DNA of 64,000 bases from Candidatus Aeolococcus gillhamiae (GCA_003244045.1 QHBU01000130.1:796-64795), one strand, 5' to 3'; positions 54,661-64,000 are shown, counted from the stretch's first letter. Notes: generated by a model not told the origin, from the sequence alone. Numbers and translations: made by a program.

Positions 54661-55659
54661 TCAGCCCGGGGACTCCTCCCGGCGGTGCGTCGCGGCCAGC
54701 TCGGTGAGCATCCGCGGGTCGAGGTCGGCCCCGCTGATGGTGGCCACCTTGCAGGCGGTCACCGCGCGCACGGTGGCGGTGCGGCGGCCGCCTTCGATGA
54801 GCGCCCGCTCGCCGAGCACCGCTCCGGGTCCCAGCTGGCCGAGCGGCTTGCCACCGACCTCCACCGCCACCACTCCGTCGAGCACCAGGAAGACGTCGCT
54901 GCCCTCATCGCCCTGCTCGAGCAGCGTCCCGCCCTGGGCCACCTTGCTGATCCGCGGCTTGGTGCCGCCGCGCATGATGTGGCCAGATAGCTCACGCTCC
55001 AACGCCGTCTCGACCTCGCTCACCAGCGCCGGCGAGTCCTCGTCGCCCCACGGGGTGTGCGAACCGAAAGCGCGTTGGTACCAGTCCTTGAAGTCCACCA
55101 GGCCCGATTTCAGGACCAGCTTCCCGTCCCTGTCGTAGATCCAGTGGCGAGGGAACGGGCTGGCGCCGGTCACCTCGTGGACGGAGCTGCCGTCGGCGTA
55201 CAGGGTCAGCGACAGCGTGGTCCACACCAGCGGCGCCGATATCTGCACGAACGGTGGGTACTTGACGCGGCGCGGCGCGGGCACGCCGGTGCGACCACCG
55301 TAGGTCTGCACGAACTTCACCCAGCCCTCGGAGACGACCGGGGCGTGCTGCCGGTCGGGGAAGGCGACGGCAGCGAAGGTGGCGACCCGGCCGGCCAGAC
55401 GCATGGTGGTGGACCCGATGTGGCCGCCGCCGCTGTAGCCGTGCCCGGTGATCCGGCCGTCGTCGACCTCGATCCACGCGCTGAGGCGATTGGCGAAGCG
55501 GAACCGGTCGGCCTCGCGGAGTGCCTCGAGGTCGTCGACCTGGTCGGGCGGGGGCTCGTCGTAGTGGGCGACGCCCATGTCGAACGGCATCCGGGTCATG
55601 CCTCGAACGGCTTCCGAGGGGATCCACGAGATCGACGTGACGGACGACTCGATTTTCAT
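54661..55659 (-). CDS. cyclic-nucleotide-binding (CAP_ED) protein with uncharacterised ~220-aa N-terminal domain
   Basis: ATG 55659 is preceded by GGGAGG upstream. The C-terminus GGTLLEQGDEGSDVFLVLDGVVAVEV..LGPGAVLGERALIEGGRRTATVRA is a canonical cNMP-binding fold with the phosphate-binding cassette. The N-terminal domain (MKIESSVTSISWIPSEAV...) is not recognised. Confidence 0.8.
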   Translation of the reverse strand: MKIESSVTSISWIPSEAVRGMTRMPFDMGVAHYDEPPPDQVDDLEALREADRFRFANRLSAWIEVDDGRITGHGYSGGGHIGSTTMRLAGRVATFAAVAFPDRQHAPVVSEGWVKFVQTYGGRTGVPAPRRVKYPPFVQISAPLVWTTLSLTLYADGSSVHEVTGASPFPRHWIYDRDGKLVLKSGLVDFKDWYQRAFGSHTPWGDEDSPALVSEVETALERELSGHIMRGGTKPRISKVAQGGTLLEQGDEGSDVFLVLDGVVAVEVGGKPLGQLGPGAVLGERALIEGGRRTATVRAVTACKVATISGADLDPRMLTELAATHRREESPG

Positions 55660-55805: not shown

Positions 55806-57128
55806 ATGGCCAGAGACGCATCCATACGGGTTGTGCTCGCCGACGACAACCTGATCGTCCGCGAGGGCGTGCGGGCGCTCCTCCTGATCGCCGGGGACAT
55901 CGAGGTCGTGGGCGTTGCCGGCGACTACGACGAGCTGGTGGCGGGCGCGGACGCGCTCACCCCGCAGGTGGTGGTCACCGACATCCGCATGCCGCCGAAC
56001 TTCACCGACGAGGGCATCAGGGCGGCCCGCCTGATCCGCAAGCAGTACCCGGGCACGGGCGTGGTCATCCTCTCCCAGTACGACGAGCCCGAATACGCCA
56101 TCTCGCTGCTCAGCGAGGGTGCCGCCGGCTACGCGTACCTGCTCAAGGACGGCGTCGCTGAGGGCGACCAGCTGGCCCGGGCGGTGCGTGAGGTCAGCGC
56201 GGGTGGCTCGATGCTCGACCCGCGCATCGTCAACGCGCTGACCAAGCCGGTGACCGACGGCGGCAGCCTCAGTGACAGCGACGAGCGGCTCCTCCAGATG
56301 GTCGCCGAGGGGCGGCCGATGAAGTCCATCGCGGTGGCCATCAACTCCACGGCCGAGGCCGTCTCCGACGCCGTTGAGCACCTCTTCCTGCAACTTGCAC
56401 AGCAGGCCAGCAGTGGGACGCAGAGCGCGTTGCAGCGGCTGCGGCTCCTGCACCGCGCCATCGTCGACCGCGAGGAGCAGGGCGAGAGCCTCAGCCGGAT
56501 GCTCCCCGGCGGGCTGGCCCAAAAGCTGCGCGAGCAGGGCGTCAAGCCGGGGGAAACGGAGCGCCTCACCGTCACCGTGCTGATGTCGGACATCCGCGCC
56601 TACTCGACAATCGCGGAGGTGGCCGACCCCAGCGTCCTTGCCGGCCAGCTGCACGAGCACCGCGCCGAGATGAACCACGCGCTCCTCGGTGAGAACGGCA
56701 CGGTCATGCAGTTCGTCGGCGACGCCGTGATGGCGGTGTTCGGCGCGCCGTTCCCGCAAGCGGACCAGTGCGAGCGAGCGGTGGCGGCAGCGGAGGCCAT
56801 GCACGCTCGGCAGGCCGAGCTCAACGCCCGCTGGGCTGCCGCCGGCCTGCCGCCGTTCCATCTCGGCATCGGCGTGTCCACCGGCGACGTCGCAGCCGCC
56901 CTGCTCGGGTCGGATGAGCGCCTCGAGTACTCGGTTGTCGGTGATGCGGTCAACCTCGCCCAACGGCTCCAGCAGTGGGCCGAGGGCGGTCAGACCGTGC
57001 TCAGCGATCCCACCTTTGCAGCGCTGTCGCCGCCGCCGCACGCCGAACGGCTGGAGCCCGCCCTTGTCAAGGGACGGCAGACGCCTGTCGGCGCGCACCG
57101 GCTGGGTACTGCCCTCGTCGCGACGTGA
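55806..57128 (+). CDS. response regulator fusion: REC + degenerate LuxR/GerE-type HTH + class III nucleotidyl cyclase domain
   Basis: ATG 55806 gives MARDASIRVVLADDNLIVREG.. The REC domain has VVVTDIRMP (Asp acceptor), VVILSQY and YLLKDG. The HTH region is LSDSDERLLQMVAEGRPMKSIAVAINSTAEAVSDAVEHLFLQL. The cyclase has VTVLMSDIRAYS, MQFVGDAVMAVFGAP, HLGIGVSTGDV and YSVVGDAVNLAQRLQ. Its TGA overlaps the first kinase GTG. Confidence 0.85.
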   Translation: MARDASIRVVLADDNLIVREGVRALLLIAGDIEVVGVAGDYDELVAGADALTPQVVVTDIRMPPNFTDEGIRAARLIRKQYPGTGVVILSQYDEPEYAISLLSEGAAGYAYLLKDGVAEGDQLARAVREVSAGGSMLDPRIVNALTKPVTDGGSLSDSDERLLQMVAEGRPMKSIAVAINSTAEAVSDAVEHLFLQLAQQASSGTQSALQRLRLLHRAIVDREEQGESLSRMLPGGLAQKLREQGVKPGETERLTVTVLMSDIRAYSTIAEVADPSVLAGQLHEHRAEMNHALLGENGTVMQFVGDAVMAVFGAPFPQADQCERAVAAAEAMHARQAELNARWAAAGLPPFHLGIGVSTGDVAAALLGSDERLEYSVVGDAVNLAQRLQQWAEGGQTVLSDPTFAALSPPPHAERLEPALVKGRQTPVGAHRLGTALVAT

Positions 57129-59266
57129 GCAGCAACGGTTCGCCGAGCCGGCGCGTTCTGCGCTTCGCTGCGGCGCTCAGCGTGCTGGCACCGTGCATCG
57201 CCCTTGCCCTTGCGGCCTCCCTGGGAGTGCTCATCTACGCGGACCGCAGCGTGCCCGAGAATGAGTGGATTCGCGGTGTCGGTGCCGCGGTTTTCGCCCT
57301 GCTGGTGGCGCCGATGGGCAGCCTTCTGCTGCGCCGCGTCCCGCGCAACCCACTCGGCTGGATCTTCAGCGCGGCCGCGGTCACCACCGGTCTCATCGAG
57401 CCACTGGCGTTCCTCGCCATCCACGGCACCTACGTCGAGCACGACCGCTCGTGGTGGACACTCCTCAGCGCCTGGCTGACCGAGCCTCTCGCGGTGGTGT
57501 CCGTCGGCCTTCTCGTCGGCGTGGTCCCGTTGCTCTTTCCCGACGGAGTGGTGGCCTCCGCCCGGTGGCGGCGCTACCGTAGATTCCTAACGGCCTTCGT
57601 ACCGCTGGCCGCGCTGGCTGTCGCGGTGCAGACGGGTGTCGGGCTCACCACAGTTCGCGTCAACAGCAGCGGCGGCCTTTCCTCGGACACGCAGAGCGCG
57701 TCGGTGGCGATCGCCTTCCTCGGCCTCCTGGCGTGCTCCGCCCTGTCAGCCGCCAACCTGGTCGGCCGCTACCGTCGCGCCGAAGGGATCCGCCGCCGCC
57801 AGCTCCGCAGCTTCGCCATCGCTGTGGTCGTGATCATCGCCTTCGGCTTCATCCCGCACCTCATCAGCAACATCGCCCTGGAGGACCCCACCGCGCTGGC
57901 CGTGGCCATCACCAACGCGGTGATGGTCGGGTCATTCTCACTCCTGCTCCTGGCCATGGGGATCGCCATCCTGAGGTACCGGCTGTTCGGTATTCAGGTG
58001 CTGGTCAGCCGCACGCTGGTCTACGGATCGCTGGCTGTTTTCATCACCGCCGTGTACGTCGGCATCGCCGTCGGCATCGGGGCGCTGGTCGGCGGCGGTG
58101 GCAAGCCCAACCTCGGGCTGTCGATCCTGGCCACCGCAATCGTCGCCATCGGGTTCCAGCCGGTGCGCGAGCGTGTCCAGAAGATTGCCAACCGGCTCGT
58201 GTACGGCAAACGGGCGACACCATACGAAGTGCTGTCGCAGTTCTCAGAGAGGGTGGCCGAGTCGTACTCCCTGGACGACGTGATGCCACGGATGGCGCGC
58301 GTCCTGGCCGAGGGGACGGGGGCGCAGCGCGCCGACGTCTGGCTGCGCAGCGGAAACATGTGGCACAACGCGGCTGTCTGGCCTGGCGATGCGACGGCGG
58401 CGAATCCGGTCGCTGCGGACGGATCGCTGCCCGCCATCAACGGAGCCAGCCGGCTGGTCGAGGTGCGCCACCAGGGTGATGTGCTGGGCGCTCTGGGCGT
58501 CACCAAACGCAGTGGCGAATCGCTGACGCCCGTGGAGGACAACCTGCTCTCGCATCTTGCCTCGCAGGCGGGATTGGTCCTGAAGAACGTCGGCCTCACC
58601 GGTGACCTGCAAGCGCGGCTTGTCGAGCTGCGCGCGTCGCGGCAGCGGCTGGTGACGGCACAGGACGAGGAGCGCCGCAAGCTGGAGCGCAACCTCCACG
58701 ACGGGGCACAGCAGCACCTTGTCGCCATCAAGGTGAAGCTCGGCCTTGCCGAGATGCTGATGCGCCGCGACCCGGAGACGGCCAAGCTCACCCTGGATCA
58801 ACTGAAGGGCGACGCCGACGAAGCGCTGGAAACCCTGCGCGATCTGGCGCGTGGCATCTACCCACCGCTCCTCGCCGAGAAGGGCTTGGGCGCTGCTCTC
58901 GCATCGCAGGCTCGGAAGGCGACCGTCCCGGTGACCGTCGAAGCCGACGGCATCGGCCGCTATTCGCAGGACGTCGAGGCCGCCGTGTACTTCTCAGCGC
59001 TGGAGGCGCTGCAGAACGTGCAGAAGTACGCGCAGGCGTCGGAGGCGACCGTGCGACTGCGTGAGGACGCTGGTGCGTTGCACTTCGAGGTCGCTGACGA
59101 CGGGAGAGGTTTCGATGTCGCCAGCACCACCAGGGGCTCGGGTCTCACCAACATGGCCGACCGCATCGACGCTCTTGGCGGCGAGCTAGGGATTGAGTCC
59201 GCGCCGGGCCATGGCACCAGGCTGCACGGCCGGCTGCAGGTGACCGCCGCGAGCGTACCCGCGTGA
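57125..59266 (+). CDS. sensor histidine kinase paralog 1 (multi-TM sensor + GAF + HisKA_3 + HATPase_c)
   Basis: GTG 57125 forms a GTGA overlap with the cyclase gene. The dimerisation/His region is DEERRKLERNLHDGAQQHLVAIKV. The ATPase region has ALQNVQKYA, DDGRGFD, GSGLTNMADR and GGELGIES.PGHGT. Confidence 0.9.
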   Translation: MSSNGSPSRRVLRFAAALSVLAPCIALALAASLGVLIYADRSVPENEWIRGVGAAVFALLVAPMGSLLLRRVPRNPLGWIFSAAAVTTGLIEPLAFLAIHGTYVEHDRSWWTLLSAWLTEPLAVVSVGLLVGVVPLLFPDGVVASARWRRYRRFLTAFVPLAALAVAVQTGVGLTTVRVNSSGGLSSDTQSASVAIAFLGLLACSALSAANLVGRYRRAEGIRRRQLRSFAIAVVVIIAFGFIPHLISNIALEDPTALAVAITNAVMVGSFSLLLLAMGIAILRYRLFGIQVLVSRTLVYGSLAVFITAVYVGIAVGIGALVGGGGKPNLGLSILATAIVAIGFQPVRERVQKIANRLVYGKRATPYEVLSQFSERVAESYSLDDVMPRMARVLAEGTGAQRADVWLRSGNMWHNAAVWPGDATAANPVAADGSLPAINGASRLVEVRHQGDVLGALGVTKRSGESLTPVEDNLLSHLASQAGLVLKNVGLTGDLQARLVELRASRQRLVTAQDEERRKLERNLHDGAQQHLVAIKVKLGLAEMLMRRDPETAKLTLDQLKGDADEALETLRDLARGIYPPLLAEKGLGAALASQARKATVPVTVEADGIGRYSQDVEAAVYFSALEALQNVQKYAQASEATVRLREDAGALHFEVADDGRGFDVASTTRGSGLTNMADRIDALGGELGIESAPGHGTRLHGRLQVTAASVPA

Positions 59267-61422
59267 CGGTCGCAGCGCAGCGGCGCGCGTGGACCACGCC
59301 TCTGGCCGTCGGCCTGGCCGCAATGGCAGTTGCGGCGGCAGCGACCACGGCCACGCTTGCCTTCCTCAACCGCGCGTCGTTCCCCAACCTGGATGCAGCC
59401 GACCCGACGTCGATCCTCATCCCGCTCGGAGTTGCAGTATTGGGCGCGCTGGTTGCCTCACGCCGTCCACACAACCCGACCGGCTGGCTCTTCTTGGTTC
59501 TCGCTGTGGTGGGGGGGCTGCAGGGGGTGGAGGATCAGTACGTCAGGTACGCGCTGGTGACTCACCCGGGTTCATTGCCCGGGGCAGCATGGGTGGCGTG
59601 GTTGAACAGCTGGTTCACCTTCCTCGTCTTCCCGTCCGGCGCCCTGGCCGCGGTCCTGCTGCTGCTCCCTGACGGACATCTCCCCTCGCGACGATGGCGG
59701 CCGGTCCTCGTTGCAGCGGCCGTCATGACCGCGGTGAACATCGTCTTCACTGCGCTCGCGCCCGGGCCGCTGACGCTCAGCTCGAGCGGGGCTAACTTCC
59801 CGACTCCGGACAACCCCGTTGGCCTAGCCGTTCTGAGCAGCGTCGACCAGACGTCTGGATCGGTTGTGGCCAATGGCGCCCTCTGGTTCGTCGCCCTGGC
59901 CGTCCTCCTCGTGGCGGCGGCCGCTCCGATGGTGCGGATGCGCAAATCGAAGGGCGACCAGCGACAGCAGTTGAAATGGATCGCCTACGCGGTGTTGGGC
60001 ACCGTTGTCGGAATCGTCGTCTTCACTGTCCTCGCCGGGCAGATCCTGCCATCCTGGACCTTCGACATCCCGCTGGTTCTCGGTTTCGGCGTGGCACTGC
60101 CGGCGGCGGCCGGTGTCGCCATCTTCAAACACCGGCTCTACGACATCGACATCGTCATCAGTCGCACACTCGTGTACGGCGCACTGGCTGTGTTCATCAC
60201 CGCCGTGTATGTCGGCATCGCAGTCGGCATTGGTGCGCTCATCGGCGGCGGCGGCAAGCCGAACCTGGCTCTGTCCATCCTCGCCACGGCGGTCGTGGCA
60301 GTTGGCTTCCAGCCGGTTCGCGAACGCGTGCAGAAGGTTGCCAACCGCCTCGTGTACGGAAAGCGCGCCACCCCATACGAGGTGTTGGCCCAGTTCTCCG
60401 AGCGCGTCGCCGGCTCGTACGCCGCCGCCGACGTACTGCCGCGGATGGCCCGTGTTCTTGCCGAGGGGACGGGCGCGCAGCGTGCGGATGTGTGGTTGTG
60501 CAGCGGCGACGCTTGGGCCGATGCCGCAGTCTGGCCCGGTGACGCCACGCCCTGCGCTCCATGGACTGCGCCCAACGGTGACCTGCCGTCGTCCAGTCCG
60601 GGTGACAGGGTTGTCCCTGTTTCACACCAGGGCACTGTGCTCGGAGCTCTTGGCGTCACCAAGCGCTTCGGTGAATCGCTGACCCCGGTCGAGGAGAACC
60701 TGTTGAGTCACCTCGCCGGCCAGGCAGGGCTGGTGCTCAAGAACGTCGGCCTCACCGGCGATCTTCAGGCGCGCCTGGTGGAGCTCCGCGCGTCGCGGCA
60801 GAGGCTGGTGAGCGCGCAGGACGAGGAGCGCCGCAAGCTCGAGCGCAACCTCCACGACGGAGCCCAGCAGCACCTCGTGGCCATCAAGGTGAAGCTCGGC
60901 CTGGCCGAGATGCTCGCGAGCAGAGACCCCGAGAAGGCGCGGGCCACCATCGAGCAGCTCAAGGGCGACGCCGATGAAGCCCTGGAAACCTTGCGCGACC
61001 TGGCGCGCGGCATCTATCCACCGCTCCTGGCCGAGAAGGGCTTGGGCGCAGCCCTCGCGTCGCAGGCTCGGAAGGCGACCGTCCCGGTGACGGTCGAAGC
61101 CGACGGCATCGGCCGCTATTCGCAGGACGTCGAAGCCGCCGTGTACTTCTCGGTGCTCGAAGCGCTGCAGAACGTGCAGAAGTACGCGCAGGCGTCCCAT
61201 GCCGCGGTCACTCTGGGTGAGCACGACGGTGCGCTGACGTTCGATGTCGTCGACGACGGCAGTGGCTTCGACGTTGGGTCCACCACCAAGGGTTCCGGCC
61301 TGACCAACATGGCCGACCGCATCGACGCTCTCGGCGGCGATCTGGAGATTGAGTCCACGCCGGGCAGTGGGACGCGCCTCCATGGCCTGCTCCGGGTGGC
61401 GTCAGTGGCAGCACTGGCGTGA
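59263..61422 (+). CDS. sensor histidine kinase paralog 2 (multi-TM sensor + GAF + HisKA_3 + HATPase_c)
   Basis: GTG 59263 overlaps the upstream TGA (GTGA). The C-terminal ~430 aa are near-identical to paralogs 1 and 3, while the N-terminal membrane domain has diverged. Confidence 0.9.
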   Translation: MTVAAQRRAWTTPLAVGLAAMAVAAAATTATLAFLNRASFPNLDAADPTSILIPLGVAVLGALVASRRPHNPTGWLFLVLAVVGGLQGVEDQYVRYALVTHPGSLPGAAWVAWLNSWFTFLVFPSGALAAVLLLLPDGHLPSRRWRPVLVAAAVMTAVNIVFTALAPGPLTLSSSGANFPTPDNPVGLAVLSSVDQTSGSVVANGALWFVALAVLLVAAAAPMVRMRKSKGDQRQQLKWIAYAVLGTVVGIVVFTVLAGQILPSWTFDIPLVLGFGVALPAAAGVAIFKHRLYDIDIVISRTLVYGALAVFITAVYVGIAVGIGALIGGGGKPNLALSILATAVVAVGFQPVRERVQKVANRLVYGKRATPYEVLAQFSERVAGSYAAADVLPRMARVLAEGTGAQRADVWLCSGDAWADAAVWPGDATPCAPWTAPNGDLPSSSPGDRVVPVSHQGTVLGALGVTKRFGESLTPVEENLLSHLAGQAGLVLKNVGLTGDLQARLVELRASRQRLVSAQDEERRKLERNLHDGAQQHLVAIKVKLGLAEMLASRDPEKARATIEQLKGDADEALETLRDLARGIYPPLLAEKGLGAALASQARKATVPVTVEADGIGRYSQDVEAAVYFSVLEALQNVQKYAQASHAAVTLGEHDGALTFDVVDDGSGFDVGSTTKGSGLTNMADRIDALGGDLEIESTPGSGTRLHGLLRVASVAALA

Positions 61423-63566
61423 CTCAACAAGAGCGACATCCTCGCTGGACGACGCCGCTCGCGCTGGCCTTGGCGGCGCTCGCCCTGGCGGCCGCGGCCG
61501 CAACTGTCGCGCTGGCCATCGCCAACCGTGCCACGCTGCCGAACCTCGACGCGGCGGACCCCATCTCCATCGTCGTGCCGATCGGTGTCTCCGTCGTCGG
61601 GGCGCTCATCGCCTCTCGGCACCCGCGCAACCCCACAGGCTGGCTGTTCCTCTTCGCCGCCGCCGTCGGCGGCTTGCAGGGGGTGGAGGACCAGTACGCC
61701 CGGTTTGCGCTGGTCACACACGGTGGCGGTCTGCCCTGGGGCGCATTCTCTCTATGGCTGAACAGCTGGTCGTTGTCCCTCATCTATCCGTGTGGCGCGG
61801 TGGCCATGTTCTTCCTCCTGCTGCCCGACGGTCACCTGCCCTCGAGGCGGTGGCGCGCAGTGGTCGCCTTGGCGGTTGTCGTGTCCACCGCGGCTGTCCT
61901 GCTCACCGCACTGGCGCCCGGCCCGCTCGTTCCGAGCACCAACGGTCTGAACTACCAGACGCCGGTCAATCCCGTGGGGTTGGCGGGTTTCAGCGGTGCT
62001 GTTGTGGGGGCCCTGAACAGTGCGCTGTACATCGCCGGGCTCGTCCTGCTGTTGGCGTCGGCGTCGGCGCCGCTGGTGCGTTCGCGGCGGTCGCATGGCG
62101 AGCTCCGCCAGCAACTGAAGTGGATCGCGTATGCGGTCATCATCACCGTGGTCGTCAATCTCACGCTGGCCATCTTCTTCAACCAGCTGCCAGGCTGGGT
62201 GTACGACCTTCCTATCGTGGTCGGCTTCGGCGTCGCCATGCCCGTGGCAGCTGCGATCGCGATCTTCAAGTACCGCCTCTACGATATCGACGTCGTCATC
62301 AGCCGCACGATCGTCTACGGCTCGCTGGCGGTGTTCATCACCGCGGTGTACGTTGGCATCGCGGTCGGCATCGGGGCGCTGGTCGGCAGCGGCGGCAAGC
62401 CCAACCTGGGCCTGTCCATCCTCGCCACCGCCATTGTGGCCGTTGGGTTCCAACCGGTGCGCGAGCGCGTGCAGCGGATTGCCAACCGCCTCGTGTACGG
62501 CAAGCGTGCGACGCCATACGAGGTGCTTGCCCAGTTCTCCGAGCGCGTCGCTGAGTCCTACGCAGCGGACGACGTCATGCCGCGGATGGCGCGGGTGCTC
62601 GCCGAGGGAACCGGCGCGCAGCGCGCCGATGTTTGGCTGCGCGGTGGAACACAGTGGCGCAACGCGGCCGTGTGGCCGTCGGACGCCTCACCGGAGCGTC
62701 CGCTCGCCGTCGAGAACGACATGCTGCCAGCGCTTGGCTCAGCGATGCGGGTGGTCGAGGTTCGCTACCAGGGAGACCTGCTCGGAGCGCTGGGTGTCAC
62801 CAAGCGCAGCGGCGAGTCGCTGACCCCGGTGGAGGAGAACCTCCTGTCCCACCTCGCGGGACAGGCCGGCCTGGTGCTCAAGAACGTCGGGCTGACCTCG
62901 GACTTGCAGGCGCGGCTCGAAGAGCTACGAGCCTCGCGTCAGAGGCTGGTCACTGCCCAGGACGAGGAGCGCCGCCGGTTGGAGCGCAACCTCCACGACG
63001 GTGCCCAGCAGCACCTGGTGGCGCTGAAGGTGAAGCTCGGCCTTGCCGAGTTGCTGATGAGCCGTGACCCAGCGAAGGCCAGAGCCACCATCGAGCAGCT
63101 CAAGGGCGACGCTGACGAGGCGCTCGAGACCCTGCGCGACCTGGCTCGCGGCATTTATCCGCCGCTTCTCGCCGAAAAGGGTTTGGGTGCGGCGCTCGGG
63201 TCGCAGGCGCGCAAGGCCACGATCCCGGTGACGATCGATGCTGAGGGCGTCGGCCGTTACTCACAGGACATCGAGGCCGCCGTGTACTTCTCCGTGCTCG
63301 AGGCGCTGCAGAACGTGCAGAAGTACGCGCAGGCCTCGAAGGCGACTGTCCTGCTTCGCGAAGCCGACGGCGTGCTGCGATTCGAGGTCGCCGACGACGG
63401 CCAGGGGTTCGACGTCCTCACCAGGGCGAAGGGATCAGGCCTCACCAACGTGGCTGACCGCGTCGACGCTCTTGGTGGTGCGATCGACGTGCACTCCGTG
63501 CTCGGACGGGGAACGACGCTCGCTGGAACCCTGTCCGTGCCGGTTCGTGTCGCGGTGCCCGCGTGA
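61419..63566 (+). CDS. sensor histidine kinase paralog 3 (multi-TM sensor + GAF + HisKA_3 + HATPase_c)
   Basis: GTG 61419 overlaps the upstream TGA. The domain order and motifs are the same (DEERRRLERNLHDGAQQHLVALKV; DDGQGFD; GSGLTNVADR). Confidence 0.9.
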   Translation: MTQQERHPRWTTPLALALAALALAAAAATVALAIANRATLPNLDAADPISIVVPIGVSVVGALIASRHPRNPTGWLFLFAAAVGGLQGVEDQYARFALVTHGGGLPWGAFSLWLNSWSLSLIYPCGAVAMFFLLLPDGHLPSRRWRAVVALAVVVSTAAVLLTALAPGPLVPSTNGLNYQTPVNPVGLAGFSGAVVGALNSALYIAGLVLLLASASAPLVRSRRSHGELRQQLKWIAYAVIITVVVNLTLAIFFNQLPGWVYDLPIVVGFGVAMPVAAAIAIFKYRLYDIDVVISRTIVYGSLAVFITAVYVGIAVGIGALVGSGGKPNLGLSILATAIVAVGFQPVRERVQRIANRLVYGKRATPYEVLAQFSERVAESYAADDVMPRMARVLAEGTGAQRADVWLRGGTQWRNAAVWPSDASPERPLAVENDMLPALGSAMRVVEVRYQGDLLGALGVTKRSGESLTPVEENLLSHLAGQAGLVLKNVGLTSDLQARLEELRASRQRLVTAQDEERRRLERNLHDGAQQHLVALKVKLGLAELLMSRDPAKARATIEQLKGDADEALETLRDLARGIYPPLLAEKGLGAALGSQARKATIPVTIDAEGVGRYSQDIEAAVYFSVLEALQNVQKYAQASKATVLLREADGVLRFEVADDGQGFDVLTRAKGSGLTNVADRVDALGGAIDVHSVLGRGTTLAGTLSVPVRVAVPA

Positions 63567-64000
63567 TGGGCGATATCCGCCGTCCCTCGACGACTCTCCT
63601 CGGGGTGGCGTGCGCCGCGCTCGCGGTGGCGATGGCGATGGCAGCGGCAGCATTGGTAGCCGCCAACGGACTCAATGCGACGACGGTGTCCGACGTGCCG
63701 CTCATCGTGGTATCGGCGAGCTACGCGCTGCTCGGAGCGCTGGTGGCCTCTCGGCAGCCAAGAAACATCACGGGATGGTTGTTCCTCTTCGTCGCGGTGT
63801 TCACAGGGATGGGCGGTGTCGCCAGTGAGTACGCGCTGTACGCCCGGGCGGCACGGCACGGCGCTCTTCCCGGTGCGGTGTGGGCCATCTGGTTCACATC
63901 GTGGTCGCAGTACGTGTTGTTCCCGACCGGTGCCATCGCCCTGCTCATGCTCTACCTGCCCGACGGGCGCGTTCCCTCGCCGAGGTGGCGGCCGCTAGCG
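63566..64000 (+). CDS. sensor histidine kinase paralog 4, N-terminal fragment (runs off window end; absent from ORF track)
   Basis: ATG 63566 overlaps the upstream TGA by 1 nt (TGATG). My translation is MGDIRRPSTTLLGVACAALAVAMAMAAAALVAANGLNATTVSDVPLIVVSASYALLGALVASRQPRNITGWLFLFVAVFTGMGGVASEYALYARAARHGALPGAVWAIWFTSWSQYVLFPTGAIALLMLYLPDGRVPSPRWRP. It is collinear with the N-termini of paralogs 2 and 3 (..SR.PRNPTGWLFL......LLLLPDGHLPSRRWR). Confidence 0.8.
   Translation, partial: MGDIRRPSTTLLGVACAALAVAMAMAAAALVAANGLNATTVSDVPLIVVSASYALLGALVASRQPRNITGWLFLFVAVFTGMGGVASEYALYARAARHGALPGAVWAIWFTSWSQYVLFPTGAIALLMLYLPDGRVPSPRWRPLA

Follow-up and report, generated by a model that had tools for sequence, protein, structure and literature searches.

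The 64,000-nucleotide (nt) stretch of DNA analysed here, hereafter the window, covers bases 796-64795 of a 71-kb contig from Candidatus Aeolococcus gillhamiae (GCA_003244045.1, QHBU01000130.1). This organism is an uncultured soil bacterium of Candidatus Dormibacterota, and its genome bin comprises 2.96 Mb in 302 contigs with an estimated contamination of 5.9%. At the 3' end of the window lies an operon of five plus-strand genes, which encode a response regulator fused to a nucleotide cyclase (REC-cyclase) and four tandem paralogous sensor kinases, K1 to K4 (Table 1). The REC-cyclase gene is the first of the operon, and its stop codon overlaps the start codon of K1 as GTGA; the same 4-nt stop/start overlap joins the other genes. 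In this study, we focused on the contrast between the variable sensors and the conserved signalling cores of these kinases, and on how this contrast may have arisen.

Each kinase is composed of a polytopic membrane domain, a GAF domain (with weak Pfam matches), HisKA_3 and HATPase_c. HisKA_3 (PF07730) scored 55.8-62.3 bits in all four kinases (cut-off 24) and HATPase_c (PF02518) 32-38 bits (cut-off 26.4). The phosphoacceptor histidine lies in the motif LHDGAQQ at residues 525, 531, 526 and 525 of K1, K2, K3 and K4, respectively, and the H, N, G1 and G2 boxes are retained in 4/4 kinases. The AlphaFold model of K1 (predicted local distance difference test score 87.8) contains ten transmembrane (TM) helices (residues 9-360, of which residues 9-284 are the sensor helices), GAF, a long DHp hairpin and the ATPase domain (CA). 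In Foldseek searches, the K1 core matched the fold of DesKC chains (E 4e-8 to 1e-6), and the whole K1 model returned kinase-core matches only, with nothing on the membrane domain. No Pfam or NCBIfam family reached its cut-off on the sensor domain. The NCBIfam equivalogs were far under their cut-offs (e.g. MctS, 109-113 bits vs 700); for K1, the scores were 26 bits with TIGR02916 (PrsK; cut-off 300) and 25 bits with LuxN (cut-off 1550), a weak likeness that involves the membrane region alone. Judged by sequence, K1-K4 are HisKA_3 (DesK/NarX-class) sensor kinases. They share with the DesK/NarX/LiaS class the HisKA_3 and HATPase_c matches above cut-off, the DesKC fold match and an adjacent NarL-type regulator, but their input region, a 10-TM domain followed by GAF, differs in having no Pfam family match. 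Sensors of the K1 type were found in a large protein database at 74% and 52-63% identity, one of them named Candidatus Dormibacter sp. The polytopic domain (K1 residues 1-360, window 57125-58204) also recurs in many metagenome proteins of about 400-430 amino acids (aa) that have no kinase part, and once it is fused to a SARP-type regulator (P0078; among proteins P0018-P0121). Its conserved motifs include PRNPxGW, LLFPDG..RWR and ERQQLKW.

Table 1. Features of the kinase operon and its surroundings, in window coordinates.
Feature	Position	Strand	Remarks
Cyclic nucleotide monophosphate (cNMP)-binding protein	54661..55659	-	divergent from operon; Pfam PF00027, E 3.9e-15; same gene call in identical public assembly
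REC-cyclase: response regulator, NarL-like linker, class III nucleotide cyclase	55806..57128	+	Response_reg E 3e-14; Guanylate_cyc E 3e-16
K1 kinase	57125..59266	+	713 aa
K1 variable sensor, rare K1 type	57125..57961	+	8 predicted TM helices
K1 conserved core: 2 TM helices, GAF, HisKA_3 DHp (His525), CA	57962..59266	+	Pfam HisKA_3 and HATPase_c
K1 variable GAF patch	58337-58469	+	53% identity between copies
Conversion-like tract, K1 side	58862..58975	+	only significant tract; partner K2 61018-61131
K2 kinase	59263..61422	+	719 aa; sensor end near 60114, core from 60115
K2 variable GAF patch	60490-60625	+	53% identity between copies
Conversion-like tract, K2 side	61018..61131	+	partner K1 58862-58975
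K3 kinase	61419..63566	+	715 aa; core from 62256
K3 variable GAF patch	62631-62766	+	53% identity between copies
Tract unusually like the array of another species (G014)	63305..64000, on to ~64700 past window	+	spans K3 3' end and K4 sensor
K4 kinase	63563..64000 in window; full gene to 65779	+	738 aa; core from 64397

The two parts of these kinases differ sharply in their conservation. The sensors (~280 aa, eight TM helices) show 23-29% protein identity between K1 and K2-K4, and 41-60% among K2-K4; over alignment columns 1-300, the values are 24-29% and 45-60%. The cores (~428 aa), by contrast, are 78-83% identical in protein, or 81-84% over the 375 aligned codons from the motif IAILRYRL. K1 stands apart from the other copies, K2 and K3 are the closest pair, and the K1 core is 80-83% identical to those of K2-K4. 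Within the core, mean identity is 87% in the last two TM helices and the linker, 90% in DHp (70 of 85 columns invariant) and 75% in the CA domain. K1-K4 show little or no difference in DHp helix 1 after the histidine and in helix 2 (GDADEALETLRDLARGI). A patch of 45 residues in GAF is only 53% identical between copies, about as variable as the sensors, although the rest of GAF is conserved; this patch may be a second, cytoplasmic input site. The initial annotation had described tandem, co-oriented paralogous kinases of this architecture, a sharp contrast between transmitter and sensor, and K1 as the outlier among mutually similar K2-K4 sensors. All of this is borne out by the four overlapping genes, their Pfam matches and the identities above, and divergence along the genes is not uniform. 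The core identity of 85-95% that it gave by eye holds in local 30-codon windows only, and not over the whole core, the GAF patch or the CA domain.

The same annotation had reported long identical DNA runs and had read the pattern as recent duplication or ongoing gene conversion. However, the cores are only 77-80% identical in DNA. The three longest exact matches (41, 35 and 32 nt) all lie between K1 and K2, and those elsewhere are typically 17-24 nt. Between the paralogues in the window, the proportion of synonymous differences (pS) in the core is about 0.5 and the synonymous divergence (dS) 0.79-0.86. Identical core residues are encoded by the same codon at a frequency of 0.54-0.61, vs 0.48 expected from the genes' own codon usage, so that synonymous sites have gone roughly four-fifths of the way to random. 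Among species of the genus, the single-copy neighbours of the array have a median pS of 0.47-0.50 (cyclase, receiver and regulator) and 0.52 (cNMP-binding protein). Since the core pS equals this between-species pS of the flanks, the cores must go back at least as far as the species of the genus themselves. The cores show a ratio of nonsynonymous to synonymous divergence (dN/dS) of 0.13-0.16, and the sensors one of 0.2-0.8. The likeness of the cores at the protein level thus reflects purifying selection, not recent duplication or current homogenisation. With core DNA at this identity and synonymous sites saturated, current conversion is not what maintains it.

Gene conversion was assessed with a GENECONV-type permutation test on polymorphic sites in the six paralogue pairs. 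A strict version without mismatches gave a weak signal (12 concordant sites, global P 0.017). The version with a mismatch penalty gave one tract between K1 and K2, in the region of the ATPase domain (alignment codons 601-638), where 110 nt are 95.5% identical and 29 of 34 polymorphic sites are concordant (global P=0.0005); the exact runs of 41 and 32 nt fall inside it. This tract is significant with all sites but not on third codon positions alone (P 0.10), and the other five of the six pairs had no significant shared fragment. In a wider 3' block of K1 and K2 (K1 58814-59219), codon identity is 0.73, vs 0.52-0.63 in the other pairs and 0.48 expected. K1 and K2 cores are sister in the tree (support 97-98) because of the likeness of this block. 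Across 20 arrays, core pS was below 0.41 in none of 40 same-array pairs. Recent duplication of the kinases is therefore refuted, and ongoing homogenisation was not seen, save for the K1-K2 tract.

Sensors and cores have different histories, and their trees are in strong conflict. We aligned 80 full-length Dormibacterota homologues, split them at the sensor/core junction, and built trees by quick searches under LG+G4; lineage groups were defined from cyclase identity. The lineage-group label changes 9 times on the core tree and 20 times on the sensor tree, vs 38 when labels are shuffled. The array label changes 32 times on the core tree (40.1 +/- 1.2 shuffled) and 39 times on the sensor tree (40.0 shuffled). 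All 27 cores of the window's genus (27/27) fall in one clade (support 99). The five cores of genome G020 group together with support 97 in a 36-row tree, where a single copy of another genome nests among them, and with support 85 in the 80-row tree, within an eight-row clade of support 99. The core tree is star-like, and the positions of the K3 and K4 cores in it are without resolution. In the sensor tree, the nearest relative of the K1 sensor, L089_11161p, belongs to another lineage group (53% identity, support 100), the K2 sensor groups with four sensors of other species in the genus (support 99), and the K4 sensor clade spans three lineage groups; K2, K3 and K4 sensors each have closer relatives in other species. 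Approximately unbiased (AU) tests agree with this picture. On the sensor alignment, clades of K1-K4 (p 6e-50), of K2-K4 (p 2e-5) and of the five copies of another array (p 7e-49) are all rejected; on the core alignment, so are K1 with its L089 sensor partner (p 3e-42) and three further clades taken from the sensor tree (p 5e-5, 1e-6 and 0.004). It is thus partly established that cores track the host lineage and that sensor types cut across lineages.

Comparison of kinases between species revealed mosaic genes. In the pair L066/L074, both on long-read contigs, pS is 0.12 in the sensor, vs 0.60 in the core and 0.30-0.40 in the flanking genes. The corresponding values for sensor, core and flanks are 0.26, 0.50 and 0.45-0.53 in K4/G014b; 0.30, 0.51 and 0.47 (REC only) in G002/G001; 0.31, 0.51 and 0.53-0.64 in L085/L087; and 0.35, 0.57 and 0.50-0.57 in L081/L086. 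In a sixth pair, G009/L074_11199p, sensor pS is 0.28 and core pS 0.57; the G009 kinase is alone on its contig and gives no flank baseline. The colinear control pair L083/L084 has similar values throughout (sensor 0.15, core 0.19-0.20, flanks 0.14-0.21). The clearest case is L066/L074, in which DNA identity steps from 87% in the flanks to 92-99% in the sensor, 65-75% in the core and 82-93% in the receiver and regulator genes. In the window, the tract of the K3 3' end and K4 sensor has 0.82-0.96 DNA identity to the G014 contig, vs 0.62-0.84 in the K4 core and the REC and LuxR genes. That the sensor segments are younger than their surroundings points to exchange across lineages, the breakpoints lying at the sensor/core junction. 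On its upstream side, the tract of K4 has its boundary in the 3' end of K3, and that of L066 where the cyclase gene ends and a kinase remnant is left. Both boundaries would fit with conserved transmitter sequence acting as an anchor of homology. Replacement of the core by a resident paralogue was also considered for K4/G014b and G002/G001 and was dropped, as flank pS equals core pS and the sensor is the over-similar part. These comparisons go part of the way to demonstrating that recombination at the sensor/core junction contributed to the contrast over evolutionary time. Sensor cassettes appear to have been exchanged or re-assorted, with the flanking conserved transmitter sequence as the likely homology anchor.

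We consider it likely that K1-K4 form an old array of four co-transcribed HisKA_3 kinases, maintained by selection, in which sensors and cores have recombined over time and which feeds one pathway. Several points weigh against this view. Ancient conversion of the cores and lateral exchange of the sensors yield the same tree pattern. The trees come from quick searches under a single model, and the clades tested were picked after the tree of the other partition had been viewed. On the core alignment, the orthology of K4 with G014b (p 0.42) and of G002 with G001 (p 0.30) is not rejected, so that in these pairs only the excessive likeness of the sensors is anomalous. Chimerism is possible in two of the mosaic pairs, which include short contigs of low coverage (4.2 and 2.6 kb). 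With synonymous sites near saturation, events older than the genus are undatable. Finally, the case for one pathway is built on gene order and on the conservation of DHp residues.

The same contrast might instead come from recent tandem duplication, or from ongoing gene conversion, that homogenises the transmitter DNA while the sensors diverge. The K1-K2 tract and 3' block, the sister position of these two cores and the clustering of cores by array and lineage beyond chance agree with it, as does a core identity of 0.78-0.79 within arrays vs 0.73 between genomes at equal sensor distance. It is nevertheless quite unlikely, given the synonymous divergence of the cores, the five pairs without a shared fragment, the weakness of the K1-K2 signal on third positions, the lack of any same-array pair of low core pS in the 20 arrays, and the fact that K2, K3 and K4 sensors are each closer to sensors of other species. 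An ancient duplication followed by unequal constraint only, strong on the transmitter and weak on the sensor, would need no recombination. It agrees with the difference in dN/dS, with the star-like core tree and its saturated synonymous sites, and with the two pairs whose orthology the core alignment does not reject. We regard it as unlikely, since in the AU tests the core alignment rejects clades taken from the sensor tree, and the sensor alignment rejects clades taken from the core tree. Moreover, at least five pairs of species have a sensor pS well under that of the core and of the flanks, and L066/L074 shows sharp steps of identity.

It is very unlikely that assembly produced the array or its copy number artificially, for example by collapsing or expanding a repeat or by building a chimeric contig from the metagenome. 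The fragmented, partly contaminated bin would allow for one, and contigs of the related short-read bins G014, G005, G012 and G002 (loci L003, L007, L009, L027 and L038) often end inside these kinase genes. However, the four copies share one 41-mer and no 55-mer, and no 41-mer of the array occurs elsewhere in the assembly. Every copy has its own distinct sensor with orthologues elsewhere, and a single contig spans the array with unique flanks. The same four genes are present at 99.995-100% identity in two other public assemblies (contigs of 107.6 and 19 kb), which are probably from the same population and so are independent as assemblies only; in the identical one, K4 is called from an ATG one codon later (737 aa). 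Relatives sequenced with long reads carry arrays of two or three copies. The assembly hazard that had been suspected for this repeat is therefore low. Arrays of this kind do fragment low-coverage short-read assemblies, but the window's own array is intact.

When the sequence was extended beyond the window end, K4 proved complete and was the last copy, with no fifth kinase past it. It is followed, in order, by a minus-strand gene for a single-domain receiver, a NarL/LuxR-type regulator (REC+GerE) and a surface protein. A 442-aa protein rich in Thr, Ser and Gly with a weak Big_3_5 match is encoded outside the window (L001 16165-17493, window coordinates 67369-68697). It ends in a TM helix followed by RRRRSQ, and is kept 3' of the regulator in several genomes. 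The identical public assembly annotates a cold-shock gene between the NarL-type regulator and this protein. The REC and linker of the REC-cyclase are 45% identical to the downstream NarL-type regulator, so that two of the three receiver proteins kept beside the array are paralogous.

The order of cNMP-binding protein, REC-cyclase, N kinases, REC and NarL/LuxR-type regulator is kept across Dormibacterota, with N = 0-5. The partner genes adjoin the array in dozens of genomes, and the cNMP-binding gene adjoins the cyclase in about 80 loci. The usual number of kinases is one or two; four is at the high end, and a single genome reaches five or more. In Acidimicrobiia and other Actinomycetota (loci L098-L131), the same neighbours, including a REC-cyclase that is 65-69% identical, surround a single kinase that shares the core only (residues ~298-706). 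The occurrence of the output module in another phylum indicates that this module is much older than the expansion of sensors in Dormibacterota. The window's genome holds three further members of the kinase family on other contigs, C61 (L042 1979-9001) and C156 (L043 5147-7480). Two of them are in tandem and are followed by a second cNMP-binding paralogue, 73% identical to that of the window. A direct example of array contraction was also found: relative to L074 (11300-13360), the first kinase of L066 (11300-11500) has been eliminated by a deletion internal to the gene and bounded by two copies of the 8-nt motif GGCGTGGG, leaving a remnant of about nine N-terminal codons fused to the last ~60 codons.

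These features suggest how the locus may work. In each kinase, a variable eight-helix sensor passes, within the membrane domain, into a conserved block made up of two TM helices, GAF, DHp and ATPase. Given the near-invariant DHp and the operon shared with the REC-cyclase, the four sensors most likely phosphorylate the same small set of receivers, which would comprise the REC-cyclase, the adjacent NarL-type regulator and the single-domain receiver. The cNMP made by the REC-cyclase would pass to the divergently encoded cNMP-binding protein, the likely reader of this product. Different membrane signals would in this way meet in two outputs, transcription under the NarL-type regulator and the synthesis of cNMP; the lone receiver is possibly a sink or a connector. 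The initial annotation had likewise proposed a sensor repertoire feeding one pathway. The overlapping genes, intact boxes, invariant DHp columns and conserved partners are in keeping with its proposal, and a design of many sensors to one pathway is probably present here.

Pathways in which many kinases act on one partner include KinA-KinE of Bacillus subtilis, which act on Spo0F, and LuxN, LuxQ and CqsS of Vibrio harveyi, which act on LuxU. The array resembles these sets in that several kinases with different inputs appear to present similar partner surfaces toward shared receivers. It differs from them in that the kinases are tandem, translationally coupled paralogues of one operon, present in 0-5 copies between species, and in that the likely outputs include a receiver-fused nucleotide cyclase.

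Domain shuffling has been reported as a hallmark of lineage-specific kinase expansions (Alm, Huang and Arkin 2006, PMC1630713). As in that study, the kinase domains of paralogues here cluster within the lineage and the upstream sensors have other histories, and the expansion is local, with no transposon visible. Unlike in that study, one family of homologous 8-TM sensors is involved instead of several kinds of Pfam domain, the break between sensor and core falls at one constant point within the membrane domain, and sensors are younger than the core and flanks, which points to exchange between species beyond shuffling within a genome. Our literature searches found nothing on Dormibacterota kinases and nothing directly relevant on gene conversion of tandem kinases or on receiver-fused cyclases. 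Kinase expansion with sensor shuffling and many-to-one sets are already known; what is new is the locus in an unstudied phylum, together with fairly direct evidence for the exchange of whole sensors at a fixed junction.

A wider proposal, which we put forward tentatively as a possibility, is that the eight-helix sensors are exchangeable cassettes that move between species and array positions by homologous recombination, so that the arrays form a plug-in repertoire driving cyclic-nucleotide output. Such cassettes would be anchored on one side by the 3' end of whichever gene precedes them, kinase or cyclase, and on the other by the pair of conserved TM helices that follows. There is also a caution in these results: in a genome of 70% G+C, high protein identity of a signalling module does not equal recent duplication or conversion, and the synonymous sites should be checked. 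If cassette exchange is true, the arrays would be a natural experiment on the attachment of inputs at a fixed junction of the membrane domain, which would be relevant to the engineering of chimeric sensors. The results presented here describe a previously undescribed signalling locus that is conserved in a poorly known, uncultured soil phylum. In these bacteria, a resident transmitter already matched to its partners would, if the proposal holds, gain new inputs without rewiring of the pathway.

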